64,000 bases of DNA from NCBI GenBank assembly GCA_965202605.1, contig OZ241838.1, positions 815,817-879,816 of the forward strand, given 5' to 3'. Origin of the DNA: a bacterium (GTDB lineage: Bacteria; JAAXHH01). The stretch's first letter is position 1, and each line of letters opens with the position of its first letter. Below, in pieces: positions 2,824-32,373 of the stretch. Both the position numbers and the translations under genes were made by a program. The notes beneath the pieces are model-generated. The model worked only from the letters and a program-made list of their open reading frames with translations, was not told the origin of the DNA and made no database searches.

Positions 2824-5800
2824 ATGGATAGTGCGGAGCTGTACCTGTCCAGTCGTTTCGAGATAGTGTTCATCGCACCGACTGTAGGGAATACAGGTCC
2901 TGCATCCCGTTCATGGCGGATTCCGGTCTGTCTCCAGGGCAACCCATCCGTATCACACGGATCTGACCGGCGTCCGCACGTTCCGCACGGAGTAAAGGTG
3001 CCCCGGACACACCCGCCGCCCACAGCCAGAGTCCGGTCAGCGGAAGGTCCCCATTCCGTTCGTCCGGCACTGCTCTCCGAGGAAGAGGTATCCCGGCGGG
3101 AACGAAAGGGCCGAGGACTCGCCGTTTTCGGATGTCCCGATACATTCGCACTGCCCGAGATCGAGTCCAGGCCGGGCACCGCCGTTCTTCGCGATCCGCA
3201 CGAAGGACAAGACGTTCCGGAAGAGCTCGACCGCCTGGTGCTCAAGTTGTCGTCCCGGTACGCCCCCCACCTCAACAGCCTGGTGAATCTCATGGTGCTT
3301 CCGGCGTACCGGCGGCACATTCCCCTGTATCTGTTCACGTCCCGGGATCAGGGGGACCTGGACACCGGCTCGGTCGAAATGCCTGCCAAAGACCGGATCG
3401 AGGAGGCGATGGCCCCCCTCCTGAGGGAGCAGCTCAGGTCGCTCCTGACGCAGACCTGCGTCTTGTTCCCTTCTCCCGACGCGCTGGCCTTATCAGAGAA
3501 GCCCTGGTTGACGCCCGTGGAAAGGGCGATGCACGAGGGCCTCACCCGGGGTGGCCTGTCTCACAGGCTTCATGCCCGGGTGGGATCGCGTTGCGTCGAT
3601 GCGCTCGTCGAGGACCCACATGGTCGCTTCGTGGCCGTGGAGATCGACGGCAGGGAGTTTGTCCGTGAAGATCAGATCCAGTGGGACACGGCGCTTGCCG
3701 AAGCGCATGACGTCCGGGACGTGGTCCGGTTCAGCGGGTGTGAGGTCATGAACGATCCGGGCGCATGCGTTGAAAGGGTGCGCTCGGTCCTGGCCGGCCG
3801 AGGGCACCGAACCGTACGCCAGATGCCGGAACCGAATCCCGGCCTCGCCGAGGAACAGGCCAGGTGTCTTACGCCCCGCGCCGGCGTGGTGCTTACTCTC
3901 GCGCCCGCGGGCTCGGGGAAGACCCGGGTGCTGACGCGACGGGTCGTGGAAGCCGTCCGTGGCGGCGTCGACCCCGGCCGGATCCTGTGCGTGGTCTTCA
4001 ACAAGGCGGCGAGCGAGGTGATGTCGGAGCGTATACACGGGGACGCCGGGATTCCGGGCGTGCACATCCGCACGCTGCACAGCCTCGGGTACGAGATCTG
4101 CAGACAGGCGCCGGGCAGTCCATACGCGGGCAGCGGGGTCGTCACGGAACAATCCCTTCCGGGTGGATTGACGGACCTCTACAGAAGGGTGCTGAAGCAG
4201 GATTTCGAGCGGCATTTCCAGGCCGTCCCCTACCCCTTTCCCGAACATCTCGTCGTTGCGTACGAGGAAGCGGTTTCCCGGTACCGGAGGACGCTGATCC
4301 CCGTCGACGGAGACGGTACATGCGAGGCGTTCGAGGGCTACGACAGGGGCCAGGTCCGCAGGGTCTACGCGGAAATGGAACGCCGCATGGGCGAGAAGGC
4401 CCTGATGACCTTCGACGAGCAGTTGTTCCGCGCCGTGGAAGTCCTGCTGGCCAACCCCCGGGCGCGCTTGCTCTACCAGCACCGCTTCGATACGGTCCTG
4501 GTGGACGAGGTCCAGGATCTCACCCCCGTCCAGTTCCTGATGCTCAGGCTGCTCTCCCTGCCGCTGAACAACCTGTTCGCCGTGGGCGATGACGACCAGA
4601 TGATAAACACCTTCACCGGTGCGGACCCCGAGAACATCCGCTCGTTCCAGCGGTGGTATCCGGGCGCGGTGGTCCACACCCTGGGTGAGAACTACCGGTG
4701 CAGGCCGCAGATCGTAAACCGGTCCGCAAGCGTCATTTCCCACAACGTGAACCGTTTCGAAAAGCCGATCCGTCCGGTGCAGGTTCAGGCTGGCCCGGGC
4801 AGGAACACCATCCGGATCCACATATGCCCGTCGCTCGAAGCCGAAACGGAGGTCGTGGTGCGCACGATACGCCGGTGGAAAAAACTGGGATATGCCTACG
4901 GGGACATGGCCGTGCTGGTCCGGGTGCAGTCCATCGCGGCGCCCCTGCAGTCCGCGCTTGGAGAGGCGGGCCTGCCCTTCGACCCGATCGATGAAGGGGC
5001 GCTGTACCAGTCACACCCCGGCAGGACCGTGGGCGCCTGGCTCGACGTCATCGTCCATGACGAACGGGCCGATCCCCTGTCGCATGCCATCAGCCTGTCC
5101 TTCCCCTCCCGGCAACTCTCTAATGAACACCTGCGTGAAGCGGCCACGCTCGGCCACCGTTTCTTCGAGCGTATGGAGCGTCTGCCAGGTGGCGTGATCG
5201 CCAAGGTGGAGGAGTACCGCACATGCATCGAGATCCTGCGCGGGGTCTGCCAGTCGTTGGAAGCGGCGCCTGTCGACTTCCTCGACGCGTTGATGAAACA
5301 CTCGGGCCTTGAAGCCTACTACCGGAAGAGGGACGAGACGAGCAGGCAGCGGATGGCCGCGGCAAACCTGGAATCCATCGACATGATCAGGCAGATGGCC
5401 GCCAGGCATCCGGCTACGGATTCATTCGTAGATTCGTATCTCAGGTCCATGACTGCCGAAACGGATGCCGGCAGGGAAGACCGGGACGCCGGCAGGGAAG
5501 ACCTGGAAGCGCGCGTCCACCCTGGCGCGCCCCGGGCAACAGCGCCTGGCGATGACGGGCGGAGTATGGACCGGATTACCGTTACCACGATTCACCGAAG
5601 CAAGGGCGACGAATTCAAGGGAGTGATCCTGTTCCACGTGGTCGAGGATATCCTGCCCCATCGCCGCATGTCGGGATCGGCCGAAGACATCGAAGAGGAG
5701 CGGCGCGTTTTCTACGTCGCCCTGACGCGGGCCGAAGAAAGGCTTTGCATAACGACGCAGCGCAAGCAGGCCTCCCGGTTCCTGGCCGAAATGAAGCCTT

Positions 5801-7864: not shown

Positions 7865-8824
7865 ATGCATCCCATTCTCCCCGAAATATTTAGCGCGGAA
7901 AAACGTATCCGGACCCATGTCCTGCAAACGCCCCTGATTCACTCCCTGCCGCTCTCGGCCAGGACGGGGGCGGATGTCCACCTGAAGATGGAGAGCGAGC
8001 AGCATACCAATTCCTTCAAGGCGCGCGGGGCCATGAACAAGGTGCTCTCGCTTACCGGCGAGGAACGGTCCCGCGGCGTGGTGACCGCCTCGACGGGAAA
8101 CCACGCGCAGGGCGTCGCCCGGGCCTGCATGATCGCCGGCTGCGCGGGTACGATCTATCTGCCCAGGCAGGTAGATCCATCCAAGGCGGAAGCGATCGGC
8201 CGGTATCCGGTCGACCTCGTCTTCCATGAAGGTGACGCACTGGAAACGGAGCTGCACGCCAAGCAGCAGGCCGAAGTCCTGGACCGGGTGTGGGTATCAC
8301 CTTACAACGATCCCCAGATCATCGGCGGCCAGGGCACCATCGGTATCGAACTTTCGCGTCAGTTGCCGTCCATCGACGATGTCTTTGTCACCGTCGGAGG
8401 CGGGGGCCTGATCGGTGGGATCGCCGTCTACCTGAAGGCGTATATGCCCGGCACGCGGATCATCGGCTGCCAGCCCGAACGGTCGGCGGCCATGTATCAC
8501 TGCGTGCGTGCCGGACGTATCGTCAGTACCGAGCACGGCGAAACGCTGTCGGATGGTTCCGCGGGCGACGTGGAACCGGGGTCGATCACCTTCCCGCTCT
8601 GCCGCGACCTGGTGGACGACTACATCCTGGTCTCGGAGGAGGAAATCGGCGAAGCCATCCGGTTCATGGTCGAAGCGCACCACAAGATCGTCGAAGGCGC
8701 CGCCGCGGTTGCCGTGGCTGCCCTGCTGAGGCGAAAAGACGCATTCCGTGGACGCACCGTGGCCATCGTCATCTGCGGCGCCAACATCGCCGCGTCGACG
8801 CTCGCGGGCGTATTGGCTGGTTGA
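7865..8824 (+). CDS. Threonine/serine dehydratase (fold-type II PLP enzyme)
   Basis: SFKARGA is the PLP lysine motif. The glycine-rich loop is GGGGLIGG. The product is 319 aa. Confidence 0.85.
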   Translation: MHPILPEIFSAEKRIRTHVLQTPLIHSLPLSARTGADVHLKMESEQHTNSFKARGAMNKVLSLTGEERSRGVVTASTGNHAQGVARACMIAGCAGTIYLPRQVDPSKAEAIGRYPVDLVFHEGDALETELHAKQQAEVLDRVWVSPYNDPQIIGGQGTIGIELSRQLPSIDDVFVTVGGGGLIGGIAVYLKAYMPGTRIIGCQPERSAAMYHCVRAGRIVSTEHGETLSDGSAGDVEPGSITFPLCRDLVDDYILVSEEEIGEAIRFMVEAHHKIVEGAAAVAVAALLRRKDAFRGRTVAIVICGANIAASTLAGVLAG

Positions 8825-9081: not shown

Positions 9082-10362
9082 ATGATGAAGAGGACGGAAC
9101 TGCTCGAACTCATCGCCAATGACGAGAACTCGAGGGTAGAATTCAAACGGGACGACTGCCATCCCGATTCCCTGGCGAAGGAGATGTCCGCCCTGCTGAA
9201 CCTTGAGGGAGGCGTCATTCTGCTGGGCGTGGAGAAGGACCAGCGAATCACGGGACTGACGAGGAGCCGCGAGACGGCGGATGAGTGGGTGATGAACATC
9301 GTTCGTAACAACCTTCAACCGCCGACAATACCGGTATGGACTGCCATAAAGATGGAAGATGGCAGCGTAGTGGGCGTCGTGAAGCTTCCCGCCGACAGTC
9401 CCGGGAAACCTCACAAGGCAGCCAGAGGCGGCGCGTGGGTCACGTTCACGCGCATCGGAAGTACTTCGCGCGAGGCCACCCGGGAGGAGGAAGGCAGACT
9501 CTATCAGGGCGCCCGTCTGGTTCGATACGAGATAAAGCCTGTGCCGGATATGGACCACGAGTGCCTCGACGCAGATCGGATCGAGAACTACTATCGTGAG
9601 GTCCTGAATCGATCCGCGCCGCGTCGCGCCGACGTAGAGAACTGGCTGCGACTTCTGGTCAACTCGGACTTGCTGGTAGCCGCGGGCGGTCGTTTTCTCA
9701 CATCAGTGGCCGGTCTTCTGTTGTTTGGTGAGAACCCGAACCGCCGTCTGCCGCAGGCCGGCGTGACTGCAGCGACGTTCCCGGGCGTGGAGAAGGATTA
9801 CAACATGATTGACGAAGAGCGGATTCGCGGACCGCTGGTCTCGGTTATCTCCAAAAGTGGTGCGGCCGTCGACAAGGGCGTGATCGACCGCACGGTGGAT
9901 TTCGTGAAACGCAATATGGGAAGCGTCGCGTGGCTCGAAGGCGCCCGCCGCCGCAGCAAAGGGGCGTTTCCGCTCGACGCGGTGCGGGAAGCGGTGGTGA
10001 ACGCGGTGGCGCATCGCGACTACGGGCGCGAAGGCACCGACATCGAGGTCTCGTTGTACCGTGACCGGCTCGAAGTCATCTCCCCGGGCCGGTTGCCGAA
10101 CGGGGTCACCGTGGAGAAGATGAAGGAGGGGGTCGTTCGGGTGGCCCGAAACGAATTGCTCAAGGAGATTCTTAGAGACTACCGCTACGTCGAGCACCAG
10201 GGCATGGGGGTCCGCGACAGGATCATCAAATCGATGCGGCGCCACAACGACACGAACCCGGATCTCGTGGAGGAAGACGACCGCTTCATCGTCCGGCTCT
10301 GGAAGGCGCCGCAACAGTTGAAAGCTGCAGGAGAACCCGGTCCGGCACCTGCCCAGGGCTGA
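9082..10362 (+). CDS. ATP-binding protein with Schlafen/AlbA_2-like putative DNA-binding domain and C-terminal HATPase_c_4-like domain (RecG-like 'transcriptional regulator' family)
   Basis: The N-terminus ELLELIANDENSRVEFK...LLNLEGGVILLGV is AlbA_2-like. The C-terminus AVREAVVNAVAHRDY...IEVSLYRDRLEVISPGRLP is HATPase_c_4-like. Confidence 0.7.
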   Translation: MMKRTELLELIANDENSRVEFKRDDCHPDSLAKEMSALLNLEGGVILLGVEKDQRITGLTRSRETADEWVMNIVRNNLQPPTIPVWTAIKMEDGSVVGVVKLPADSPGKPHKAARGGAWVTFTRIGSTSREATREEEGRLYQGARLVRYEIKPVPDMDHECLDADRIENYYREVLNRSAPRRADVENWLRLLVNSDLLVAAGGRFLTSVAGLLLFGENPNRRLPQAGVTAATFPGVEKDYNMIDEERIRGPLVSVISKSGAAVDKGVIDRTVDFVKRNMGSVAWLEGARRRSKGAFPLDAVREAVVNAVAHRDYGREGTDIEVSLYRDRLEVISPGRLPNGVTVEKMKEGVVRVARNELLKEILRDYRYVEHQGMGVRDRIIKSMRRHNDTNPDLVEEDDRFIVRLWKAPQQLKAAGEPGPAPAQG

Positions 10363-10473: not shown

Positions 10474-11883
10474 ATGTCCCGACCACGCCCGAACATCCTG
10501 TTCGTCATGTCCGACGACCACGCGGCGCACGCCATCAGCGCCTATGGCAGCCGTATAAACCAGACGCCTCACATCGACCGTATCGCGGCGGAGGGCATGC
10601 GGTTCGACAACTGCTTCTGCACCAATTCCATCTGCACGCCCAGCCGGGCTGCCATCCTGACGGGCACGTACAACCACGTAAACGGCGTCACCACCCTGTC
10701 CACGCACCTGGACGGCCGGTTGTTGAATTACCCCAGGGTACTGCGGGAACACGGTTACCAGACGGCGGTGATAGGCAAGTGGCATCTCGGCCACGGCGGC
10801 ATCCACGATCCCACGGGATTCGACTACTGGGACGTGCTGCCCGGCCAGGGCCTGTACCACGATCCCGAGATGATCAGGATGGGAGAACGGACGAAACGAA
10901 GCGGGTACGCCACCGATCTCATCACGGACTATTCCCTGGACTGGCTCCGCGGCCGCGACCCGGATCGTCCCTTCTGCCTCATGGTGCATCACAAGGCGCC
11001 GCACCGGTCCTGGGAACCCGACGACAGGCACGCGGACATGTACGAGGACGAGGACATCCCGGAGCCGGAGACCTTCAACGACGACTATTCGAACCGGGCG
11101 CGGGCCGCCACGGCCGCCCGGATGCGGGTTGAAAGCGATCTCAACGCCGAGGATCTGAAGGTACCCGTACCGGAGCACCTGACCCCCGCGGAGGAAAAAA
11201 GCTGGAAGTACCAGCGATATATCAAGGACTATTTGCGGTGCATCGCCTCGATCGATGACAACGTGGGCCGGTTGCTGGACTACGTCGATGAGGAAGGAAT
11301 CGCGGAGGACACGATCGTGATCTACACGTCCGACCAGGGATTCTTCCTCGGCGACCACGGCTGGTACGACAAGCGTTTCATGTACGAAGAGTCCCTGCGC
11401 ATGCCCTTCCTGATCCGCTATCCGGGGGAGGTGGCGCCGGGTACCGTGAACGGCGACATGATCCTGAACGTGGACTTCCCGGCCACCTTCCTGGACTGCG
11501 CTGGCGTGGGCATACCACCGTCATTCCAGGGACGCTCGTTCCTGCCCTTGCTCCAGGGCGAGACCCCGGCCGACTGGCAGACGTCCATGTACTACCGGTA
11601 CTGGATGCACGGCGCCCACCACAATGTCTGCGCCCATTACGGTGTCCGGACCCTGCGGTACAAGCTGATCTACTACTACGGCGATCCGCTCGGCCAGGAA
11701 GGCGCGGTCGGTCCCAACATGCAGCCGGAGTGGGAGCTCTTCGACCTGGAGAAGGATCCCCGCGAGTTGAACAGCGTGTATTCGGATCCCGATTACGCGG
11801 ACGTGGTTGCGGAGTTGAAGGCGGAATTGAAGCGGCTGCAGGACAAGGTGGGGGATGAGGCGTATGGGGGCGAGTCAGGCTGA
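10474..11883 (+). CDS. Sulfatase (formylglycine-dependent; CTPSR active-site motif)
   Basis: Contains LFVMSDDHA and the C-x-P-S-R motif CTPSRAAILTG. The product is 469 aa. Confidence 0.9.
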   Translation: MSRPRPNILFVMSDDHAAHAISAYGSRINQTPHIDRIAAEGMRFDNCFCTNSICTPSRAAILTGTYNHVNGVTTLSTHLDGRLLNYPRVLREHGYQTAVIGKWHLGHGGIHDPTGFDYWDVLPGQGLYHDPEMIRMGERTKRSGYATDLITDYSLDWLRGRDPDRPFCLMVHHKAPHRSWEPDDRHADMYEDEDIPEPETFNDDYSNRARAATAARMRVESDLNAEDLKVPVPEHLTPAEEKSWKYQRYIKDYLRCIASIDDNVGRLLDYVDEEGIAEDTIVIYTSDQGFFLGDHGWYDKRFMYEESLRMPFLIRYPGEVAPGTVNGDMILNVDFPATFLDCAGVGIPPSFQGRSFLPLLQGETPADWQTSMYYRYWMHGAHHNVCAHYGVRTLRYKLIYYYGDPLGQEGAVGPNMQPEWELFDLEKDPRELNSVYSDPDYADVVAELKAELKRLQDKVGDEAYGGESG

Positions 11884-12018
11884 TTCTGAGGAGCATGTGC
11901 CGTCAAGGAAACTCTCGTCAAATCCGACGACAATACGTAGATTTCGAGCCGTTCCCTAGGGTCATGAGTTTATCGAATCGTTGTTCCCCACCGTCTGGTT
12001 GATGAGATTCGACCCAAG

Positions 12019-12047
12019 TTGACACGGAACAGATGTTGTGTTATCTT
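12019..12047 (+). promoter_or_regulatory. Sigma70-like promoter candidate (TTGACA-17-TATCTT) upstream of the DUF433 gene
   Basis: TTGACA lies at 12019-12024, followed by a 17-nt spacer and TATCTT at 12042-12047. Confidence 0.4.
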
Positions 12048-12156
12048 GACCGTCAACTCTCGGACGGTATGCACGTATTCTAATGCAGTCCATGGCCTTC
12101 TAACCGTTGCGCTGTTTCGTCCGTGCGGGACCCAATCAATAAATGAGCGTTTGTTG

Positions 12157-12381
12157 ATGAAGGATGAGGTTATAGATAACGACACGAACGTGCTGGGGGC
12201 GACCCCAGTGTTTTCCGGTACCCGGGTACCGGTACGTATCCTTATCGAGTGTTTGGAAGCGGGGGATCGGCTGGACGATTTTCTCGAAAACCACCCGACA
12301 GTGTCCCGAGACCAGGCAGTAGAGGTTCTTGAACGCGCCAAAAGAGTTCTTGTGGGAACCTCGAATGAAACGGTTGCTTGA
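12157..12381 (+). CDS. DUF433 domain protein (putative antitoxin-like small protein)
   Basis: The 74-aa product GATPVFSGTRVPVRILIECLEAGDRLDDFLENHPTVSRDQ fits the DUF433 pattern. The gene sits in a lower-GC islet. Confidence 0.7.
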   Translation: MKDEVIDNDTNVLGATPVFSGTRVPVRILIECLEAGDRLDDFLENHPTVSRDQAVEVLERAKRVLVGTSNETVA

Positions 12382-12412
12382 CGAGTCCGTGCCGAGGTCA
12401 AGCGGAGATTGA
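12365..12412 (+). pseudogene. Truncated remnant of a DUF5615 (Mut7-C/PIN-like) partner gene of DUF433. Only 15 codons remain.
   Basis: MKRLLDESVPRSSGD* matches the conserved DUF5615 N-terminus (MKLLLDENLPRSL...). It overlaps the DUF433 stop by 17 nt, as in intact pairs. No further similarity appears in any frame before higA. Confidence 0.4.
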
Positions 12413-12499
12413 TTCCCTAAACGATTTGAGATCTGCACAGTTCAGCAGATGGGTGGACGGGCCGTTCCATGGCGAAGTTCCCCTGTAACGTCATAGGAT

Positions 12500-12805
12500 A
12501 TGGTCATGAACGATCCCATAACACCCGGCGAGATCCTGCTTGAGGAGTATCTCGATCCGATGGGCATTTCGCAGAACGCCATGGCGCGTGCGATCGGTGT
12601 AGCACCGCGGGCAATCAACGAGATTGTGCATGGCCGTCGGTCGATTACGCCATCCATGTCGATCCGCTTTGGCGCCTTCTTCAATCAGTCCGACCAGTTC
12701 TGGCATGGAATCCAGGTGGAATGCGACTTCAGGAAGCTCGCCAGGGACAGACCTCGCCTGATCGACGGGATCCAACCCGCTGCGACCTTGAATCAGAATC
12801 CCTGA
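12500..12805 (+). CDS. higA: HigA-family addiction-module antitoxin (XRE-type HTH)
   Basis: [53 protein letters not shown] is a canonical HigA/VapI segment. No HigB-like ORF is adjacent. Confidence 0.85.
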
Positions 12806-12899
12806 CCCGTGCGCGAAGGCGGATCAGCCCAAACCACAAAAGCCCATCCAGACGTTGACATCTGTCGATGACCTGTTGCATGATCAACCATCCTGAACC

Positions 12900-13961
12900 A
12901 TGCACTCATTCCGCGACAATCGTCTACGCGACCATGAGATACCGCTGAGCACGGTCTGGCTGCTCAACGACATCGCCGAGTCGCGAGGCAAGCAGGCGCT
13001 GCTCGTCCGTCAGTCGCCGCAAGCCCTGAGGTCGCTCCGCGAGACGGCCGTCATTCAGAGCGCCGAATCCTCCAACCGTATCGAGGGGGTGGTGGTCGCC
13101 CGGGATCGCCTTTACCCGCTGGTGCTCGGCCGATCAAAACCCCGCGACCGCTCCGAGCAGGAGGTCCAGGACTATCGCCGCGCCCTTGACGAAATCCATG
13201 CCAACTACGCCGATCTTGCCGTGACCGCTGACACCTTGCAACGTCTGCACACCCTTTGTCAATCCGCCAGCGGCGACGCCGGTCAATTCAAAAGGGTCGA
13301 TAACGATATCATGGAGTTCCCTCCGGGACGGCCCCCGGTGGTACGGTTCCGTTGCGTGAGCGCCGGGGACACCCCGGCGGCCGTGGAAGAACTCTGTCAG
13401 CATTACCGCCATGCCCTCGACCAGGAAAACGTCCCGCCACTCATCGTCGTCGCCGCCCTCGTCCTCGATTTCCTTTGCATCCACCCCTTTCGGGACGGCA
13501 ACGGACGCGTCTCCCGTCTGCTCACCCTGTTGACGCTTTACCAGCACGGTTACGAAGTCGGTCGCTACGTCAGCCTGGAGCGCCTCGTAGAGGAATCCCG
13601 GGAGAGCTACTACGAATCTCTCAGGCTGAGTTCCGATCGTTGGCACGAGGGCCAGCACGAACTGACGCCCTGGTTCAACTTCATTTTCACGATGATCCGT
13701 CGAGCGTACGTGGAGTTGGAGGAACGCGCCGGTCAGGCCGAGGCGCCGCGAGGTGCGAAATCCGAGCGCGTGCTAGCGGCCATTCGCGCCCAGCCGGGCG
13801 AGTTCCGCCTCCGGGACCTGGAACGGGACTGTCCCGGCGTCGGTCGCGAATGGATCCGCACCCTGCTGGCGGAGTTGAAGAAATCCGGCGACGTAACGTG
13901 CCGTGGGCGAGGGCCGGGCGCCCGATGGCGTTTTCTCGGGGATAAAGGCAATGATGCCTGA
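12900..13961 (+). CDS. Fic family protein (class II: N-terminal inhibitory SxxxEG helix plus HPFxDGNGR core)
   Basis: The core motif is HPFRDGNGRVSR. The inhibitory motif is SNRIEG, near the N-terminus. The product is 353 aa. Confidence 0.9.
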   Translation: MHSFRDNRLRDHEIPLSTVWLLNDIAESRGKQALLVRQSPQALRSLRETAVIQSAESSNRIEGVVVARDRLYPLVLGRSKPRDRSEQEVQDYRRALDEIHANYADLAVTADTLQRLHTLCQSASGDAGQFKRVDNDIMEFPPGRPPVVRFRCVSAGDTPAAVEELCQHYRHALDQENVPPLIVVAALVLDFLCIHPFRDGNGRVSRLLTLLTLYQHGYEVGRYVSLERLVEESRESYYESLRLSSDRWHEGQHELTPWFNFIFTMIRRAYVELEERAGQAEAPRGAKSERVLAAIRAQPGEFRLRDLERDCPGVGREWIRTLLAELKKSGDVTCRGRGPGARWRFLGDKGNDA

Positions 13962-14067
13962 GCAGGCCGCGGGACGGCCGATATAGTGAGGCTCAAGGCG
14001 GTTTTCTTGAGAATAGGGGTAGTAACGCTTGAGTAAGAGTAGTAATGAGGGTATTAACGGGTAAACA

Positions 14068-14094
14068 GACCGGGTTTCACCCTGAAACCCGGTC
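14068..14094. terminator. Perfect 12-bp-stem hairpin (GACCGGGTTTCA-ccc-TGAAACCCGGTC) between convergent Fic and radical-SAM genes. Candidate bidirectional terminator, but it lacks a clear U-tract.
   Basis: The inverted repeat spans 14068-14079 and 14083-14094. It is preceded by three AT-rich GTA(G/T)TAA(C/T)G motifs at 14018-14059. Confidence 0.4.
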
Positions 14095-14144
14095 ACCGCC
14101 GTGTGGATGAACCCCCTTTCGCCTCATCCACACTGAAACCCGCC

Positions 14145-15932
14145 TCACCCCTCCGTCGCCAGCTTGCCCCGGGCGGGCTGGAAGTGCACCGCGGCGATGG
14201 CCTCGCGGACCTTGTCCACGTTCTCGGTGAAGAGGATGCCGAGCTGGGTCAGGGTCCGGTCCATCCGCGTATTCTTGTCGTGCACGGGGAAGATGTGCAG
14301 GTCCTGGACCCGGGCCCGCACGTCGTCCACCATCTCGCCGGCCATGACGACCAGGTCCGAGTCCTTGAGCGCGGACAGTTTTTCCTCGCTGAACTCCTCC
14401 ACCCGGATATTCATCTCGTCCAGGAACGTGCGGAGCACCCGGCTCACGTCCACGTTGGAAACGGCCAGGAGGACGCGCTTGTAGCGGTCCGGCGACAGGG
14501 ATACGTTCTCGGCGCGAAGGTCGGCCAGGTATTCGGTGTGCTCCTTGAACCACCGCCGAAGGATGGAGTAGCCGTTCAGGCGGAGCAGGCCATTGCGCAA
14601 TTGCCGCTCGGCCTCTCGCTTGTTGAACCTGGCCGCGTTCCATGCCGCGCTGGCCAGCTTGTAAAGGATGCGGTGCGGCGCGTACATGCCCTTCATGCCT
14701 TCCATCACCGTGTTGACCAGTTCGTAGCGGGTCATGTTCGGTACGGGGTGGTTGGCGTGGTGGCCGTCGTAATGGCTCCAGTCGCGGCTCAGGTACTCCC
14801 CGCCCTGCAGATCGTAGCGGATGGTGTCTTCGGAACCGGGCAGGTAGGTCAGGATCATGCACTGCGACGTCGCCAGGTCCTTCTTCTTGGCGAATTCGAA
14901 CTGGTGCTTGATGGTCTCCGGATGGTCCGAGTCGGCGCCGGCGATGAACATGGCGTGGAGATCGATGCCGTGGCCATGGATCGCGTCGATGGCCCGTTCC
15001 ACGTCGTGGGCCGTCTCTTTCTTGCCGTACAGCTCAAGGGCCGTTTCGTCGATGGATTCGAAACCGACCATCACGCGGTCGCACCCGGCTTCCCGCATCT
15101 TCTTCATGAGCGCCGGCTGCTTGGAGATCTCGTGGCGCATCTGCGCCGCCCAGGGAATGGTCAGCCTGCGGTCGATCATGCCCTGCATGATGGCCATGGT
15201 GCGGTCGACCGGGACGTTGAAGATATCGTCGGCAAAGAAAAGATAGTTGAAATCCGGTATCTTGGTATAGGCTTCCAGCATGTCGAGCACACGCTCGACC
15301 GAGTGTCCCCGCAGCTTGTGGCCGTTCAGCTTGGTCACCGTACAGAAGCTGCAGTCCCACGGACAGCCCCTTTGCGTCTGTATCGACATGATGTCCATCT
15401 TGCCCCGGGGTACGAGGGCGAAGTCGGGAATGGGCAGCACGTCCAGGTCTTCCGCCTTGGGCCGCTCCGGATTGTGAATCGCCTGGCCGTCTTCCATCCA
15501 GGACAGGTTGGCGATTCCGCGGTAATCGGCGCCGGATTCCAGGCAACGGACCAGCTCCACCAGCGCCTCTTCGCCCTCGCCGCGCACCACGAAATCACAG
15601 TGCTGAAGGGCTTCGTCAGGCACGAAGGTCGGATGCGTCCCGCCCATCACGATCGTCTTTTCGGGGTAGACGTTCCGGATGAAATCGGCGTACTGATAGG
15701 AACCGGGCGCTGTCGACGTCAGGGAGGAGATGCAGATCAGGTCGGCTTCCCCGAACTCGTTCGTATCGATATCCTCCACCTCTTCCAGCATCACTCTGAC
15801 GCCGTAACCCAGATTCCGCATGATCGTCGCGAGCACCAGGCAGCCGATGCGCGGTATATAGGCGTCCGAATACACATGGAGATGGGAGGACTTCGGTTCG
15901 AGAAAGAGGATGTGCTTGATACTGTTTCGCAT
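14145..15932 (-). CDS. B12-binding-domain radical SAM protein
   Basis: The N-terminal part is a cobalamin-binding Rossmann domain. CPWDCSFC is the CxxxCxxC radical-SAM cluster motif. The product is 595 aa. Confidence 0.9.
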   Translation of the reverse strand: MRNSIKHILFLEPKSSHLHVYSDAYIPRIGCLVLATIMRNLGYGVRVMLEEVEDIDTNEFGEADLICISSLTSTAPGSYQYADFIRNVYPEKTIVMGGTHPTFVPDEALQHCDFVVRGEGEEALVELVRCLESGADYRGIANLSWMEDGQAIHNPERPKAEDLDVLPIPDFALVPRGKMDIMSIQTQRGCPWDCSFCTVTKLNGHKLRGHSVERVLDMLEAYTKIPDFNYLFFADDIFNVPVDRTMAIMQGMIDRRLTIPWAAQMRHEISKQPALMKKMREAGCDRVMVGFESIDETALELYGKKETAHDVERAIDAIHGHGIDLHAMFIAGADSDHPETIKHQFEFAKKKDLATSQCMILTYLPGSEDTIRYDLQGGEYLSRDWSHYDGHHANHPVPNMTRYELVNTVMEGMKGMYAPHRILYKLASAAWNAARFNKREAERQLRNGLLRLNGYSILRRWFKEHTEYLADLRAENVSLSPDRYKRVLLAVSNVDVSRVLRTFLDEMNIRVEEFSEEKLSALKDSDLVVMAGEMVDDVRARVQDLHIFPVHDKNTRMDRTLTQLGILFTENVDKVREAIAAVHFQPARGKLATEG

Positions 15933-28430: not shown

Positions 28431-29438
28431 ATGACACGGAAACCCCTCCAGGATCGTGTGGCCGTAGTAACCGGAGCGACGCGCGGCACCGGACGCGGAA
28501 TCGCCCGCATGCTCGGGGCGGCGGGCGCCACGGTCTACTGCAGCGGTCGGAGCGTGAAAGGACACCCCGCCACGGCGGGGCGGCCCGAGACGATAGAGGA
28601 AACCGCCGAAATGGTCACGGCCGAAGGCGGCAAGGGCGTTGCCGTGCGTACGGACCACACGGTCGAAGCCGAGGTGGATCGGCTTTTCGGCCGCATCCGG
28701 AACGAGCAGAACCGGCTCGACATCCTGGTCAACGATATCTGGGGCGGTGACGAACTCACACAGTGGGGATCGCCGTTCTGGGAGCTCGATACCCCCCAGG
28801 GGCTCAGGCTGCTCGAACGGGCCGTGCACACGCATATCATTACCAGCCGGCTGGGCGCGCCCCTGATGGTCGAGCGTAATTCGGGGCTCATCGTGGAAGT
28901 TACCGACGGAGAAACCATGGGTTATCGCGGGAACCTGTTCTACGATCTGGCCAAGAACGCCACGATCCGATTGGGATACGCGATGGCGTGCGATCTTCAC
29001 AGGCACAACGTCACCGCGCTGACGGTCACACCGGGGTTCCTGCGGTCCGAGGCGATGCTGGACGGTTTCGGGGTCACGGAAGAGAACTGGCGGGATGCTA
29101 TCGAGCAGGATTCGTACTTCGCGGAATCGGAGACGCCGTGTTTCCTGGGACGGGGCGTAGCGGCCCTGGCGGCCGATCCGGACGTCGCTTCCAAGAACGG
29201 CGGGTTGTACTCGAGCGGTTCGCTCGCAAAAGAGTACGGTTTTACCGATCTCGATGGACGCCAGCCGGACTGGGGAAGCTTCTTCCGTGCCAGGGTACGG
29301 GAAATCATCGGAAGTGAGGACGCGCCGGACGAGATGAGCCTGTACATCGTCCGCGCCCGGATGTACCAGATCGAACTGGACCCCGGTGCGAAAGAGGAGT
29401 GCAAACGACTACGTGCTTATCTGGATATGCATGAATAA
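28431..29438 (+). CDS. SDR family oxidoreductase
   Basis: VAVVTGATRGTGRGIA is the SDR glycine motif. The start was taken at the internal Met MTRKPL. Confidence 0.85.
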   Translation: MTRKPLQDRVAVVTGATRGTGRGIARMLGAAGATVYCSGRSVKGHPATAGRPETIEETAEMVTAEGGKGVAVRTDHTVEAEVDRLFGRIRNEQNRLDILVNDIWGGDELTQWGSPFWELDTPQGLRLLERAVHTHIITSRLGAPLMVERNSGLIVEVTDGETMGYRGNLFYDLAKNATIRLGYAMACDLHRHNVTALTVTPGFLRSEAMLDGFGVTEENWRDAIEQDSYFAESETPCFLGRGVAALAADPDVASKNGGLYSSGSLAKEYGFTDLDGRQPDWGSFFRARVREIIGSEDAPDEMSLYIVRARMYQIELDPGAKEECKRLRAYLDMHE

Positions 29439-29442
29439 CTCG

Positions 29443-29452
29443 TGTTAAAGGT
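29443..29452. repeat. Left copy of an imperfect 10-bp direct repeat (TGTTAAAGGT) flanking the AT-rich islet. The right copy TGTTAACGGT is at 30882..30891.
   Basis: The two copies match at 9 of 10 positions. They bracket the roughly 44% GC segment. Confidence 0.4.
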
Positions 29453-29486
29453 AGTTGGTGATTATTGTTTTCAAAGTAAGATACAG

Positions 29487-29521
29487 TTTAGACGTATATC
29501 ACGTGATGTCGTACGTCTAAA
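29487..29521. promoter_or_regulatory. Perfect inverted repeat TTTAGACGTA-(15 nt containing CACGTG)-TACGTCTAAA upstream of the islet gene. Candidate operator or stem-loop.
   Basis: 10-bp perfect arms lie at 29487-29496 and 29512-29521. Confidence 0.5.
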
Positions 29522-29591
29522 GATACACCTGCGGTTCATAATGTCAGAATAGTGTCACTAAAGTTCAATAAATGAAGCCGGAGAGTAATCT

Positions 29592-30845
29592 ATGCAAGAC
29601 AAACTGATCAGAATAAGCCCAGCCCATGATAATGAAATAGAGATTTACGAACGACTGTTTCTCGGTGCAAATGTATCCGAAGGCAGTTTGAGTGAGGCAG
29701 ATCTTCGAAACCTGCTATTTCGAAATCCCGAGACGCTTCCAATTGCGGCAATCGATCCAGCATACATGGGAGTCATTCCAGTATGCAAAGAATTGAGAAC
29801 CCCATCTGGAAAGATCGATGCCTTGTTCGTTAACCCCCATGGACGGCTGGTACTTGTCGAGTTCAAACTTTGGCGTAACCCGGAAGCGCGTCGTGAGGTG
29901 ATCGGTCAGATTTTAGATTATGCTAAAGACTTGGCTACATGGGATTATGGAGACCTGCAACGCGAAGTATCTCTAAACACGAGAAATACTGGAAATGTTT
30001 TGTTTGATTTTGTTAGAAACGAAAACGAAGTGTTGAACGAGAATGACTTTGTAGACAACGTGAGCCGTCACCTGAAACGAGGAGAGTTTCTTCTGCTTAT
30101 CGTAGGTGATGGAATTCGAGAAGGGGTGGAGAACATCGTCGACTTCGTTCAGAGACATAGTGGCCTGCATTTCAACTTGGCGCTGGTCGAAGCGGCTCTT
30201 TACAAGGATGCTTCTGATCAACTTTTTGTTCATCCACGTGTCCTGGCTCGCACTGAAATAGTACAGCGGTTCACCTTTGAAGGCGACTTTGCATCCGTCG
30301 TCCCTGCTGATATAATCGAGATTGATGAAGGAAATGCTTCGAGTTCGCTGTCAGAAAAAGAAGAGCAGAACCAGCGATTCTGGAATAATGTTCTGAAGGA
30401 ATTTCAGTTTTCCGATTCTACCATAAAAATCCCAACAGACATATGGCCGGACACTCCTCAAGGTTCAACAATTCACGTGCCGGTTAGAAACTCAGCATTC
30501 AACGGATGGGCTTTGACCTTTGTCGCATTTCTATATAGAGACAAAGGCACTATGGGTTGCTATCTTTCTGTACGCAAGAATCATTCCAGGGAGGAAAGGA
30601 TATTTAAAGGAATTGCTGCCTCACTCGATGAATACAAGAAGATAATCGGGTATAAATTAAATAAGTGGGAGAACGCCAAAGGCAGGCCCAGAATCGGATT
30701 TTTGATGAATTGCGATGCGTCTGTAATAAAAGATGAAAAAAGTGAAGACTTCAGAAACGCGGTTTCCTGGATGCGGGAGCATTTTGACCGGCTGGTCAGT
30801 AACCTGCATCCTCAGCTCCAGGACATGCTTCAGGAAGGTCGATGA
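29592..30845 (+). CDS. Hypothetical protein with an N-terminal RecB/NucS-like PD-(D/E)XK nuclease core and a C-terminal Trp-rich domain of unknown function. The gene is in an AT-rich, horizontally acquired islet.
   Basis: GKIDALFVNPHGRLVLVEFKLW...EVIGQILDYAKDL carries the nuclease motifs D, ExK and QxxxY. The gene has roughly 44% GC against about 65% for its neighbours. A GGAG ribosome-binding site precedes the ATG. Confidence 0.8.
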   Translation: MQDKLIRISPAHDNEIEIYERLFLGANVSEGSLSEADLRNLLFRNPETLPIAAIDPAYMGVIPVCKELRTPSGKIDALFVNPHGRLVLVEFKLWRNPEARREVIGQILDYAKDLATWDYGDLQREVSLNTRNTGNVLFDFVRNENEVLNENDFVDNVSRHLKRGEFLLLIVGDGIREGVENIVDFVQRHSGLHFNLALVEAALYKDASDQLFVHPRVLARTEIVQRFTFEGDFASVVPADIIEIDEGNASSSLSEKEEQNQRFWNNVLKEFQFSDSTIKIPTDIWPDTPQGSTIHVPVRNSAFNGWALTFVAFLYRDKGTMGCYLSVRKNHSREERIFKGIAASLDEYKKIIGYKLNKWENAKGRPRIGFLMNCDASVIKDEKSEDFRNAVSWMREHFDRLVSNLHPQLQDMLQEGR

Positions 30846-30881
30846 ATCATGGACTACTAAGGTTTTAAGCACCTAATTTCT

Positions 30882-30891
30882 TGTTAACGGT
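30882..30891. repeat. Right copy (TGTTAACGGT) of the 10-bp direct repeat flanking the AT-rich islet
   Basis: It pairs with 29443..29452. Confidence 0.4.
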
Positions 30892-30978
30892 GCTATGCTG
30901 ATTTATACTGAACTCTACACTCCCCCGAATCCAACTTGAAAATGGGATGGATTCTCATCCCCGACGGAGGCTAAATCC

Positions 30979-32373
30979 ATGTCTGGCAATGACATTTTAA
31001 AAAACGTCGACTCCCGAATCCAGGACCCCGACAAGATCCAACAACTTTCGCGCCGCGGATTCATCGGCAGCATGGCAGCCGGTGCTGCCGGGGTGGCCGG
31101 CGCGTCGACCCTGCTGTCCACGGCGGCCGAGGCGGTCGCGGCGCCGGAACCCGATCTCCCTGCCGTTCCGGATACCCCTCCCGGAGGCGCCGCACCCGAT
31201 GATGAGGCTTACTGGGGGCAGGTGGCGGACCAGTTCCTGTTGCGCGACAACGTCATCTACATGAATTCCGGTACCCGGGGCATCTCGCCGATAAGCGTGC
31301 ACAAGGCACAGTTGGAGGCGATTGAAGCGGTGAATTCGGATCCCAATATGTGCTGGTCGACCTACAGCTTCGCGGGAATGAGCGAGATCCGGAAGAAACT
31401 GGCCGCGTTCGTGGGAGCCGGGGTCGATGAAGTCGCCGTCACGAACAGCACGACGGACGGCATGGGACTCGGTTTCATGGGGCTGGAACTGAACCGGGGC
31501 GATGAGATCCTGACCACGAACTATGACTACGGCTGGGTGAAGAACATGATGGCCTTCCGCGCGAAGCGGGACGGTCTGGAGTTCAAGATGGTGGACATTT
31601 CGGATCCGAGCTTCCGCACACCGGATGATCCGCAGAAAGTCGTCGATGCCGTGGCAGCCGGTATCACACCACGGACCAGATTCCTCACCATCTGCCATAT
31701 AAACTACACCGACGGTTTCGTCATGCCGGTCAAGGAGATCTGTGAGATTGCCCGTGACCGGGGAATCATCACCCTGGTCGACGGCGCCCAGCCGCCGGGC
31801 ATGATGAAAATGGACATGAGTGAACTCGGATGCGACATGTACGCGGGAGCGGGCCACAAGTACATGCTGGCCGCCCAGCATACGGGGTTTCTGTACCTGC
31901 GGAACGAAGTCGCCGAAAGGGTACATCCCCTGATATACACCGGTTCATCGAATCCCGAGTGGGCCGTTACGGGAGCCCGCAAGCTCGAACAACGCGGATC
32001 TTCGAGTTATTCGGACCGGATCTCCATCGGCGCGGCGCTGGATTTTCACAACAAACTCGGGGTCGAAGCCATCGAAGCCCGACTGCGGTACCTGTCCCAG
32101 CGCATGAGCCAGGGATTGAAGGCCATCGACGGCGTCACCGTGTACGCATCGGACGATCCCAGAATGTCCTGCGCCCTCGTATCCTTCTCCGTCAAGGACC
32201 TCGATCCATCGTTTATCGTAGGGCGTCTCTGGTACCGCAGCCCGAACATCTATATTCGCACCGTCGGCGCCGCGGGCGGTTTCAGAGGGGTCCGCGCCAC
32301 GCTGCACGTCATGGACACGGCCGATCATGTAGATACGTTAGTCGACAGGATCGCAAGTCTCGCACAGGCATGA
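30979..32373 (+). CDS. Aminotransferase class V-fold PLP enzyme (cysteine desulfurase / isopenicillin-N epimerase-like) with a TAT signal peptide
   Basis: SRRGFIGSMAAGAAGVAGAS...AEAVAAP is a TAT signal. GAGHKYM-type and class-V fold segments follow. The product is 464 aa. Confidence 0.8.
   Translation: MSGNDILKNVDSRIQDPDKIQQLSRRGFIGSMAAGAAGVAGASTLLSTAAEAVAAPEPDLPAVPDTPPGGAAPDDEAYWGQVADQFLLRDNVIYMNSGTRGISPISVHKAQLEAIEAVNSDPNMCWSTYSFAGMSEIRKKLAAFVGAGVDEVAVTNSTTDGMGLGFMGLELNRGDEILTTNYDYGWVKNMMAFRAKRDGLEFKMVDISDPSFRTPDDPQKVVDAVAAGITPRTRFLTICHINYTDGFVMPVKEICEIARDRGIITLVDGAQPPGMMKMDMSELGCDMYAGAGHKYMLAAQHTGFLYLRNEVAERVHPLIYTGSSNPEWAVTGARKLEQRGSSSYSDRISIGAALDFHNKLGVEAIEARLRYLSQRMSQGLKAIDGVTVYASDDPRMSCALVSFSVKDLDPSFIVGRLWYRSPNIYIRTVGAAGGFRGVRATLHVMDTADHVDTLVDRIASLAQA

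Follow-up and report, generated by a model that had tools for sequence, protein, structure and literature searches.

Orphan antitoxins, that is, chromosomal antitoxin genes without cognate toxins that derive from degraded canonical modules, have been reviewed together with the anti-addiction model (PMC7354431). VapBC-type modules that combine a PIN-like toxin with a COG2442 (DUF433) antitoxin were predicted by Makarova et al. 2009 (PMC2701414), and VapBC10 of Synechocystis is a working toxin-antitoxin (TA) pair of this PIN-COG2442 kind (PMC3834315). In the published class II Fic proteins with a winged helix, namely the single-gene anti-phage protein SoFic, CccR and CbFic2, DNA binding is tied to autoregulation or activity switching (PMC9755527, PMC10628234, bioRxiv 10.64898/2026.07.09.737422). 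CccR of Yersinia represses its own promoter via the inverted repeats AGATAATCAT-N26-ATGATAATCT (PMC9755527), SoFic AMPylates EF-Tu and also binds the promoter of its own gene (bioRxiv 10.64898/2026.07.09.737422), and DNA binding moves CbFic2 of Coxiella from one to the other of its two activities, AMPylation and deAMPylation (PMC10628234). In E. coli, Sofic acts as an abortive-infection toxin, and an antitoxin of 47 aa is encoded downstream of it (PMC12249575). Here, we compare with these systems a small islet at positions 11884-14144 of a 64-kb stretch of bacterial DNA (contig OZ241838.1; hereafter the window, whose coordinates are used throughout), located between a sulfatase gene and a radical-SAM gene.

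Gene calls in the window were made from an open reading frame (ORF) listing and Pfam/NCBIfam profile searches. The islet consists of a DUF433 gene, a DUF5615 pseudogene, a solo HigA gene and a class II Fic gene, followed by a triple direct repeat and a 12-bp hairpin; all these features were found at the positions, in the order and between the flanks given in an initial annotation of the DNA. Our analysis indicated that the islet is probably the eroded content of an integration and defence hotspot, in which the toxins are dead, the antitoxins have been kept and fic is accompanied by its own repeat array. Remnants of TA and defence systems are a known kind of object, of which the islet is a well-resolved example; at the same site, ~20 related genomes cover the whole series between intact higBA, vapBC and DISARM at one end and solo antitoxins at the other. 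What goes beyond the known systems is the conserved triple repeat, with its tie to a large subfamily of winged-helix Fic proteins.

The sulfatase|radical-SAM junction was compared in 31 related loci in all (L-numbers denote the related or homologous loci). A scan of species-representative genomes with the radical-SAM (rSAM) protein yielded 22 loci with rSAM identities of 76-97%, from uncultured bacteria labelled Latescibacterota or Gemmatimonadota by their depositors, and junction content was read by tblastn and ORF maps. Three outgroup genomes (L013, L017 and L020) have an empty junction with the sulfatase and radical-SAM genes ~55 nt apart, and the junction is filled differently in 16 other loci. 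HigA is the sole junction gene in L009 and L021, and is found with Fic in L002 and L004, with VapB, VapC and Fic in L018, with VapBC in L008 and L011, and with VapB alone in L006, L007 and L010. Other cargo comprises an AAA ATPase of ~500 aa (L005, L014), an M48-like peptidase (L012, L015) and a 1728-aa protein (L006), for which a PADLOC scan gave no match, while L018 bears DISARM at the same site (DrmA at 570 bits, DrmB, DrmC and a weak DrmE). A tree of rSAM and carA groups all loci that bear HigA in one clade, to the exclusion of those that are empty or have no HigA, which fits a single acquisition.

Traces of integration are preserved in the relatives. A 365-aa tyrosine recombinase is encoded directly upstream of higB in L011, C-terminal integrase fragments are present in L007 and L014, and a second partial sulfatase 3' end (aa 413-463) follows higA in L011, and likewise in L003. 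Integrase and duplicated sulfatase 3' end together form the pattern expected of an element integrated into the sulfatase 3' end with higBA at its edge. The window contains neither an integrase remnant (tblastn best E = 0.013, chance level) nor a second sulfatase 3' end, so its islet is a remnant rather than an excision-capable island, and tblastn searches of the window for remnants of the integrase, VapB, VapC, DUF1330 and the AAA ATPase returned chance-level matches only. The vapBC-fic block is found again in L026, in a context that is unrelated, with 80%, 78% and 84% amino acid identity, which argues that it is a unit of its own. The window rSAM is closest to that of L001-L003 (dS 0.16-0.24) and the window fic to that of L004, L023 and L025 (dS 0.20-0.22; 0.30 to L002), and these differing closest relatives suggest recombination between lineages at the site. 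The variable hotspot, with integrase, duplicated target and intact higBA, vapBC and DISARM in relatives, bears out the initial view of an old mobile or defence islet. The junction thus resembles the defence islands and hotspots between core genes in its fixed position and in the changing set of defence and TA genes that it holds, an integrase, DISARM and AAA ATPases among them, and differs from them in that the window islet is small (2.3 kb) and mostly eroded.

The fic gene (12900-13961, + strand; PF02661, 58.4 bits) encodes both motifs of a class II Fic protein. The catalytic motif HPFRDGNGRVSR occupies residues 195-206 (H195-PFRDGNGRVSR-206), and the inhibitory motif S58-NRI-E62-G63, N-terminal to it in the same chain, corresponds to the SxxxEG motif recognised at first reading; neither varies among 14 homologues. 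Of the solved structures, PDB 8uqu_A comes closest (E = 1e-90 over residues 21-343); it is an uncharacterised protein entered as "Fido domain-containing protein", for which a literature search found nothing. SoFic structure entries match the Fic core only (~200 residues, E ~1e-10), and the PADLOC SoFic model scores 124 bits over residues 43-293. In an AlphaFold2 (AF2) model, the C-terminal domain (residues 284-345) forms a winged helix with H-(b)-H-H-b-b topology, a recognition helix at 316-329 and a predicted local distance difference test (pLDDT) score of 70-86; together with the 8uqu alignment, which runs through residue 343, this indicates a C-terminal winged helix of the SoFic type. The protein is therefore predicted to be a self-inhibited class II AMP-transferase of the winged-helix architecture seen in SoFic, CccR and CbFic2. 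It would need no separate antitoxin and may persist alone because its inhibition is built in. Unlike at the E. coli Sofic gene (PMC12249575), no AS1-like conserved downstream ORF was seen at the window fic.

The gene is intact in all six fic-bearing clade loci, with a ratio of nonsynonymous to synonymous substitution rates (dN/dS) of 0.17 (Nei-Gojobori, 6 sequences). The subfamily is large: more than 7,800 homologues were found at E ≤ 1e-30, many of them exactly 353 aa long and 67-84% identical, with source names that span at least three phyla, and the distant fic homologues are solo genes in unrelated neighbourhoods. In L028 (3370-3500 and ~4750-4860; also in L029 and L030), a ~110-nt direct repeat (~85% identical) flanks the solo fic, and the region upstream of the next gene, which encodes an HD-domain protein, is duplicated on either side of fic, suggesting a route of fic insertion. 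L026 contains a second, decayed fic copy in tandem (~4690-5550), in which the sequence upstream of fic and its first codons (..NSFRNNRKLH..) are repeated downstream, and the opposite strand of this copy bears a called 263-aa ORF without a Pfam match.

Downstream of fic, at 14016-14059 on the + strand, motif scanning and alignment of loci revealed three direct repeats, R1 at 14016-14027 (GGGGTAGTAACG), R2 at 14036-14047 (AGAGTAGTAATG) and R3 at 14048-14059 (AGGGTATTAACG), spaced by 20 and 12 nt. The initial annotation had noticed three GTA(G/T)TAA(C/T)G motifs here and assigned them to the right end of the islet. The motif does occur three times in the window (14019, 14039 and 14051), against 0.47 occurrences expected and with 0 of 100 shuffles reaching three, but it belongs to fic rather than to an islet end. 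In all six fic-bearing clade loci it is located only after fic, and it is found nowhere else in the 25 loci compared. Positions 14011-14062 are 85% invariant in the fic-bearing clade loci (five of them entered the column count), compared with 53% for the spacer between the fic stop and the repeats and 64% for the last 22 nt of fic. The distant fic loci possess the same three repeats at the same spacing, with R1 within the last fic codons (..AAG GGT AGT AA.) and with R2 and R3 starting at the stop codon.

A metagenome scan with the Fic alignment provided 80 more loci of 44-72% identity, and 81 distinct fic 3' ends were scored against 274 control windows. A three-copy repeat above the 99th percentile of the controls was present in 50 of the 81, nearly always spaced by 19-20 and 12 nt, with the R1 start between -40 and +10 relative to the stop codon. 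The repeat unit differs between loci and agrees within a locus (AGTAAGGGTAGT, AAAGAGGGTAAT, AATTAGGTAATA, AAACTAGGTATT, GAATTGGGTAA, GAATGGTATACT and AATGTAGGAATA): outside the GGTA core, repeat identity is 0.70 within loci versus 0.49 between loci, a value reached in 0 of 2000 permutations. The GTAKTAAYG motifs of the window are the version present here of a triple direct repeat that most genes of this Fic subfamily carry at their 3' end.

Between the fic stop codon and the repeats, self-alignment identified the relic of a ~72-nt tandem duplication of the fic 3' end (13962-14033, + strand). It reads ..GFLENRGSNA*, comparable to the family C-terminus ..RFLKNKGSNA* (consensus ..RFLxNKGSNA*); the alignment of 13890-13965 with 13962-14037 scored 7, against -9.1 ± 4.5 for shuffles (maximum 6 in 500), and the L018 copy of the duplicated segment matches the true fic end of L026 at 89%. 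After this duplication in the window clade, the motif disappeared from the coding copy but persisted in the non-coding one, and R1 was freed from the ORF, which argues that the motif is selected as nucleic acid and not as peptide. A small ORF starting within R2/R3 (ATG at 14044) was considered and rejected; it is not conserved, with 13 codons in L004 and no ATG in L018.

The array was also compared with described repeat elements. Type III TA systems of the ToxIN kind have ~36-nt tandem repeats upstream of the toxin gene with a terminator between; the array here has three units of ~12 nt at or after the fic stop codon and does not belong to this type. An Rfam search at E ≤ 1 over 11700-14300 returned nothing. 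The integron attC core (RYYYAAC or GTTRRRY) was absent from both strands of the four islet spacers, and the repeats are direct rather than inverted, so they are not attC sites. A literature search on Fic and direct repeats found no description of such a triple repeat.

Comparison of the recognition helices with the arrays revealed that GVGREWIR accompanies repeats of the type AGGGTA(G/T)T, GVSRDMIRR the type GAGGGTAAT, GVGLDLIRR the type CTAGGTATT, and GVS(L/V/I)D(L/M)IR the type TTAGGTAAT or TTGGGTAA, and that the clade with the helices ..SSQLIKKVL and ..GRGRGARWEVIR is without repeats. This co-variation of helix and repeat type is suggestive, and we tentatively propose that the three repeats are cognate binding sites for the C-terminal winged helix of Fic itself, through which they would hold or regulate Fic beside its gene. 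OmpR/PhoB-type winged-helix regulators bind tandem direct repeats about one helical turn apart. The likeness is an analogy only: a winged-helix domain and direct repeats 12 nt apart (R2-R3) are common to both, whereas the OmpR/PhoB proteins are an unrelated family and the candidate sites here lie outside the promoter. A more far-reaching version, which we regard as rather doubtful, is that the array is the cognate nucleic-acid ligand of the winged helix, so that gene and site form a one-gene-plus-one-site unit. The newly made enzyme would dock beside its gene, on the DNA or on the end of its own mRNA, and be held inactive or deAMPylating until disturbed, for example by a phage, and the array would serve as a non-protein "antidote" travelling with the gene. 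The triple repeat matters more than the islet itself: the role of the winged helix in class II Fic proteins is actively studied and promoter binding alone has so far been reported, and a co-varying 3' array in most members of a subfamily thousands strong yields a specific, testable prediction. If Fic does bind the array, current models of how these toxins are restrained would change.

Two other functions of the array were weighed against binding by Fic, our preferred reading. The repeats might act in the fic mRNA, as a 3'-end element for translation termination, mRNA stability or an RNA-binding protein. They are without exception in sense orientation, located at or over the stop codon, and are thus transcribed with fic; they are rich in stop triplets in two frames, their core (AGGGUAAU or AGGUAAU) resembles the Shine-Dalgarno-like AGGUGAU, and promoter copies were not found. 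However, they have neither an Rfam match nor a conserved pairing partner, nearly all loci have GGTA in place of GGTG as the core, which weakens pairing with the anti-Shine-Dalgarno sequence, and the co-variation of the copies is easier to explain if the reader co-evolves, Fic being the sole protein that always travels with the repeats. An mRNA function is therefore unlikely. A role as a recombination or mobility site, at which a trans-acting recombinase would read the end of a fic cassette, is improbable. It would explain the solo gene in so many different neighbourhoods, and the repeat flanking fic in L028 and the tandem decayed copy in L026 point in the same direction, as does the general observation that direct-repeat arrays mark the ends of some transposons. 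Yet no matching array lies 5' of fic, no extra copies occur in 510 kb, no recombinase gene is linked to it, none of the islet spacers has an attC core motif, and the co-variation with the winged helix would be left unexplained.

The higA gene (12500-12805, + strand) encodes an intact XRE-type helix-turn-helix (HTH) antitoxin that belongs to the HigA family (TIGR02607, 90.3 bits versus a cut-off of 47.7, profile positions 1-79 of 81; HTH_3, 32.8 bits); in relatives, the gene begins at the second ATG (12506). Among solved structures, the HigA proteins of P. aeruginosa, P. putida and Proteus, and YbaQ, are nearest. The protein therefore resembles the antitoxins of the HigBA modules of Proteus vulgaris Rts1, P. 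aeruginosa and P. putida (GraTA) and the solo HigA-like E. coli YbaQ, and the toxin-first order in the relative L007 and a palindrome directly 5' of higA are further likenesses. It differs in that the window is without HigB, which has been replaced by another TA module, and in that HigA alone is under purifying selection across species-level divergence. A tblastn search of 11850-14150 with the L007 HigB found nothing (best E = 0.077), and the space 5' of higA is occupied by the DUF433 gene and the DUF5615 pseudogene. The window thus holds no HigBA system, and HigA is an orphan, as the initial annotation had called it.

Among the 14 HigA-bearing lineages, HigB is intact only in L007 (92 aa; PF05015, 59.6 bits). 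It carries a nonsense mutation in L011 and a frameshift plus a stop in L004, is truncated in L010, is reduced to a 3' remnant in L002 and is absent elsewhere, which amounts to at least four lesion types. HigA, of similar length, is intact in 12 of the 14, with stops in L006 and L012 (Fisher p = 7e-5 against the 1 of 14 for HigB, lineages being counted regardless of phylogeny). The same asymmetry is seen for VapB, which is without VapC in L006, L007 and L010, and for DUF433 and DUF5615. The dN/dS of HigA is 0.10 (Nei-Gojobori, 16 sequences; dS 0.5-0.8), compared with 0.11 for the sulfatase, 0.07 for rSAM and 0.09 for carA, so the orphan HigA is under purifying selection and is constrained like a housekeeping gene. 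Measured selection of this kind is useful for the question of what orphan antitoxins are for. The locus agrees with the described orphan antitoxins in being a chromosomal antitoxin gene without its cognate toxin, left by a degraded canonical module (PMC7354431), and differs in that the degradation series is visible locus by locus (intact, nonsense, truncated, absent) and that selection is measured instead of assumed. Most likely, HigA works as a free HTH protein; it could neutralise the HigB of incoming mobile elements, as in anti-addiction, or act as a repressor, as in domestication.

Neutral decay, in which the intact DUF433, HigA and Fic would be functionless here and simply not yet mutated, is quite improbable against this background. 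The junction gains and loses genes freely, and such decay would account for the DUF433 frameshift in L005 and the HigA stops in L006 and L012. It does not account for a HigA dN/dS equal to that of the housekeeping neighbours at dS 0.5-0.8, for the contrast between HigA and HigB in genes of similar length, or for a Fic that is intact in six of six loci with a dN/dS of 0.17. A functional pair of HigA and Fic, with the HTH protein as regulator or antitoxin of the "mobile mystery protein A/B" or class I Fic-antitoxin type, would mean that HigA is not an orphan at all; it is very unlikely and already largely refuted by the distribution of both genes. The two are adjacent, co-oriented and 95 nt apart in the window, L004, L023, L025 and L115-L117, and Fic gives a weak, partial match to TIGR02613 mob_myst_B (26 bits versus a cut-off of 124). 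But HigA occurs without Fic in nine loci (L005-L012 and L021), in L009 and L021 with no other junction gene; in L018 vapBC intervenes, and in L002 the two genes stand ~370 nt apart. At the distant fic loci inspected, no neighbouring gene encodes an HTH protein, the partner proper to HigA is HigB in L007, with remnants in L002, L004, L010 and L011, and Fic has a built-in inhibitory helix.

The palindrome 5' of higA was identified by alignment of the regions upstream of the gene. It is degenerate in the window (CCTGTAACGTCATAGG, 12482-12497) and perfect in L023 (CCTGTAACGTTACAGG, ~4572-4587), and in L007 it sits between the higB stop and the higA start. It was kept where DUF433-DUF5615 replaced higB and lost where other DNA replaced the upstream region, and may be a HigA operator or an RNA hairpin.

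The module that took the place of higB begins with the DUF433 gene (12157-12381, + strand; PF04255, 47.9 bits versus a cut-off of 23.6), which encodes an intact, antitoxin-like COG2442 protein of 74 aa; an identical protein exists in a public collection (P0001). Looking up the exact Fic and DUF433 sequences of the window led to no contig. Its stop is overlapped by 17 nt by the start of a 15-codon ORF (MKRLLDESVPRSSGD*, 12365-12412), which had been proposed to be a DUF5615 remnant. The ORF is present as described, but the remnant is longer, extending on the + strand from 12365 to ~12476: after an in-frame TGA (12410-12412, codon 16) the frame goes on as FPKRFEICTVQQMG, a frameshift follows near 12451, and the 3' two-thirds are deleted, leaving approximately codons 1-37. 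Pfam and NCBIfam scans of the frame-corrected remnant peptides gave no match, so relatives were fetched via DUF433 homologues, and the remnant was confirmed only with the real homologue of L023. In tblastn, residues 1-30 of this protein align at 12365-12454 (80% identity, E = 6e-12) across the internal TGA, and its GWTGRS is found in another frame at 12451-12468; in blastn, the alignment breaks at 12476|12479 of the window, equivalent to 4322|4570 of L023, i.e. 248 nt are deleted. The choice between deletion and frameshift posed by the initial annotation is thus settled in favour of both, in addition to the stop. The segment 12440-12488 (frame RWVDGPFHGEVPL) was considered as a HigB C-terminal remnant, given that the L007 HigB ends in RWTDSGPFQV, and was rejected; it is the frameshifted DUF5615 sequence GWTGRSNGELL, and the HigB tblastn match has E = 9.7.

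The gene order sulfatase, DUF433, DUF5615, HigA, Fic, radical SAM is also found in L023, L024, L025 and L115-L117. In the L023-type loci, the frame after DUF433 reads MKL*LDESVPRQLGDRFPARFEIYTVQQMGWTGRSNGELL... over 108 codons, with a TAG at codon 4, and with this stop masked the L023 protein matches PF18480 (31.2 bits) and PIN_10 (18.6 bits). DUF5615 is full length apart from the TAG in L023, L025 and L115-L117, truncated after approximately codon 11 in L118, and absent in L005. None of the eight clade loci examined has an intact copy, and the gene was inactivated by at least three independent lesions that differ between lineages. The locus therefore matches the PIN-COG2442 VapBC-type modules in having DUF433 followed by a PIN-like (DUF5615/PIN_10) gene with a 17-nt start/stop overlap, and differs from them in that the antitoxin domain is present without an intact coupled toxin, the PIN-like partner being a pseudogene in the window and in all eight clade loci. 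Full-length HigB or DUF5615 frames were not recovered from the window by tblastn with the L007 HigB and the L023 DUF5615. The earlier proposal that toxins were lost while antitoxin-like genes and Fic were kept is consequently supported: DUF5615 is dead, HigB is gone, and HigA is maintained under purifying selection. That the DUF5615 lesions are sequencing or assembly errors and the organism has an intact toxin is of negligible probability, as lone-base frameshifts and stops can arise in long-read assemblies but a deletion of 248 nt (~83 codons) relative to five independent assemblies cannot be a sequencing error, and the same gene carries different lesions in three other lineages.

Past the TAG, 104 codons stay open in four of five assemblies with few amino acid changes (L023 4209-4535, likewise L025, L115 and L116), and the L117 copy is frameshifted near its C-terminus. 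The lesion of the L023 group may be recent, or translation may still yield the 80-aa product that gene callers annotate from Met30 on (MGWTGRS...). In L118 (1847-3225), DUF433 is followed by a gene for a 468-aa DNA methylase (PF00145) in place of DUF5615, HigA and Fic, which represents another cargo state.

Taken together, these comparisons suggest that the islet was built in layers. The ancestor of the crown clade would have received, at the sulfatase 3' end, a tyrosine-integrase island with higBA at its edge, and a vapBC-fic block, whose vapBC is missing from the window, would have been added beside the radical-SAM gene. In the L023 group, just the last two higB codons are left (..CCTTAG), abutting the DUF5615 3' flank, which indicates that the DUF433-DUF5615 module replaced higB, in the proposed third step down to these two codons; the later 248-nt deletion of the window removed this relic too. 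In the window strain, both toxins are non-functional, HigB by loss and DUF5615 by stop, frameshift and deletion, next to the intact DUF433 and HigA.

Several points weigh against this interpretation. The functions discussed here are predicted from sequence. The dN/dS of DUF433 is 0.17 (Nei-Gojobori, 4 sequences, the window versus L023-L025) but depends on three near-identical comparators, and with DUF433 frameshifted in L005 the gene may simply be at an earlier stage of decay, rather than still functional as we infer. Phylogenetic non-independence affects the counts of intact toxins and antitoxins. As to Fic, the NCBIfam SoFic equivalog NF046030 scores 55.8 bits against a cut-off of 550; with a score so far below it, the protein is not a SoFic orthologue and an anti-phage role is drawn by analogy only. 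The AF2 model, built from a 14-sequence alignment, is poor outside the C-terminal domain (mean pLDDT 50). A clear array is lacking in 31 of the 81 fic loci, and the link between recognition helix and repeat type is confounded by shared ancestry. The known operators of winged-helix Fic proteins are inverted repeats in the promoter, which suit a two-fold symmetric dimer, whereas the window fic has three direct repeats at its 3' end and none upstream. Searches for further copies upstream of fic or elsewhere gave six chance-level matches in 510 kb, so a promoter operator of the same sequence is not supported.

The composition of the islet is uneven. The guanine-plus-cytosine (GC) content averages 0.619 over the window and 0.536 over 11884-12899 (z = -2.3; 2.9% of the stretches of this length reach so low a value). 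DUF433 has a GC of 0.533 and a GC at third codon positions (GC3) of 0.55, compared with a GC3 of 0.75-0.86 in the flanks; HigA is intermediate (GC 0.572, GC3 0.72) and Fic is not low (GC 0.636, GC3 0.75). The tetranucleotide deviation is modest (z ~1.6). Low GC had been claimed for the whole islet, with about 52% for DUF433; the profile upholds it, at a slightly higher figure, on the DUF433 side, to which the GC argument is thus confined, and not for fic. A promoter-like TTGACA-17-TATCTT (with TG) lies 5' of DUF433 (12019-12047, + strand), as a consensus match only, and TTGACA-18-CATGAT lies 5' of fic (12855-12884, + strand), each with 10 of 12 consensus matches. The consensus scan found no promoter-like site directly before higA, which may be transcribed by read-through from the DUF433 promoter.

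The left flank of the islet is the sulfatase gene (10474-11883, + strand; Pfam Sulfatase and SGSH_C) and the right flank is the B12-binding radical-SAM gene (14145-15932, - strand; Pfam), after which carA comes next. Between the convergent fic and rSAM genes, a hairpin scan located a perfect hairpin with a 12-bp stem and a 3-nt loop (14068-14094), as first noted. It is perfect in the window only, retains 10 of 12 pairs in L023 and L025, and is replaced by a different hairpin in L018. At the empty site L013, the sulfatase stop is immediately followed by CCGGGTT-N8-AACCCGG, whose arms have the same sequences, and the window hairpin is therefore probably derived from the bidirectional terminator native to the empty site, rather than being a mark of the islet. 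A second hairpin, with a 10-bp stem and a 13-nt loop (14101-14133), lies directly downstream of the rSAM stop codon and is kept in relatives. A 14-nt direct repeat, CACCCTGAAACCCG (14078-14091) and CACACTGAAACCCG (14129-14142), 51 nt apart, has one copy in the right arm of the 12-bp hairpin and the other abutting the radical-SAM stop codon; it is also present in L004, L023 and L025 and may be a target duplicated by insertion of the fic block. Several relatives (L009, L010) have tandem GGTCGCCGATCAGGCGTCGCC-like units at the radical-SAM 3' end, together with a strong bidirectional terminator, GGCATCCGGGA..TCCTGGATGCC, with a T run; the window is without such a terminator.

Two side observations concern other regions of the window. 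At 9082-10362 (+ strand), between a PALP-enzyme gene (7865-8824) and the sulfatase gene, lies a gene for a 426-aa AlbA_2/Schlafen and HATPase_c_4 protein with partial PADLOC matches to pAgo-associated models. It is not at that position in any of the 15 relatives having both neighbours, and represents a second insertion of a defence-like gene, specific to this strain and located across the sulfatase gene from the islet. Within the window, composition is most deviant at 29000-31250 (GC 0.44 versus 0.62, with the largest tetranucleotide distance), where a 417-aa ORF without a Pfam match (29592-30845) lies between short-chain dehydrogenase and class-V aminotransferase genes; this region is probably another foreign insertion.

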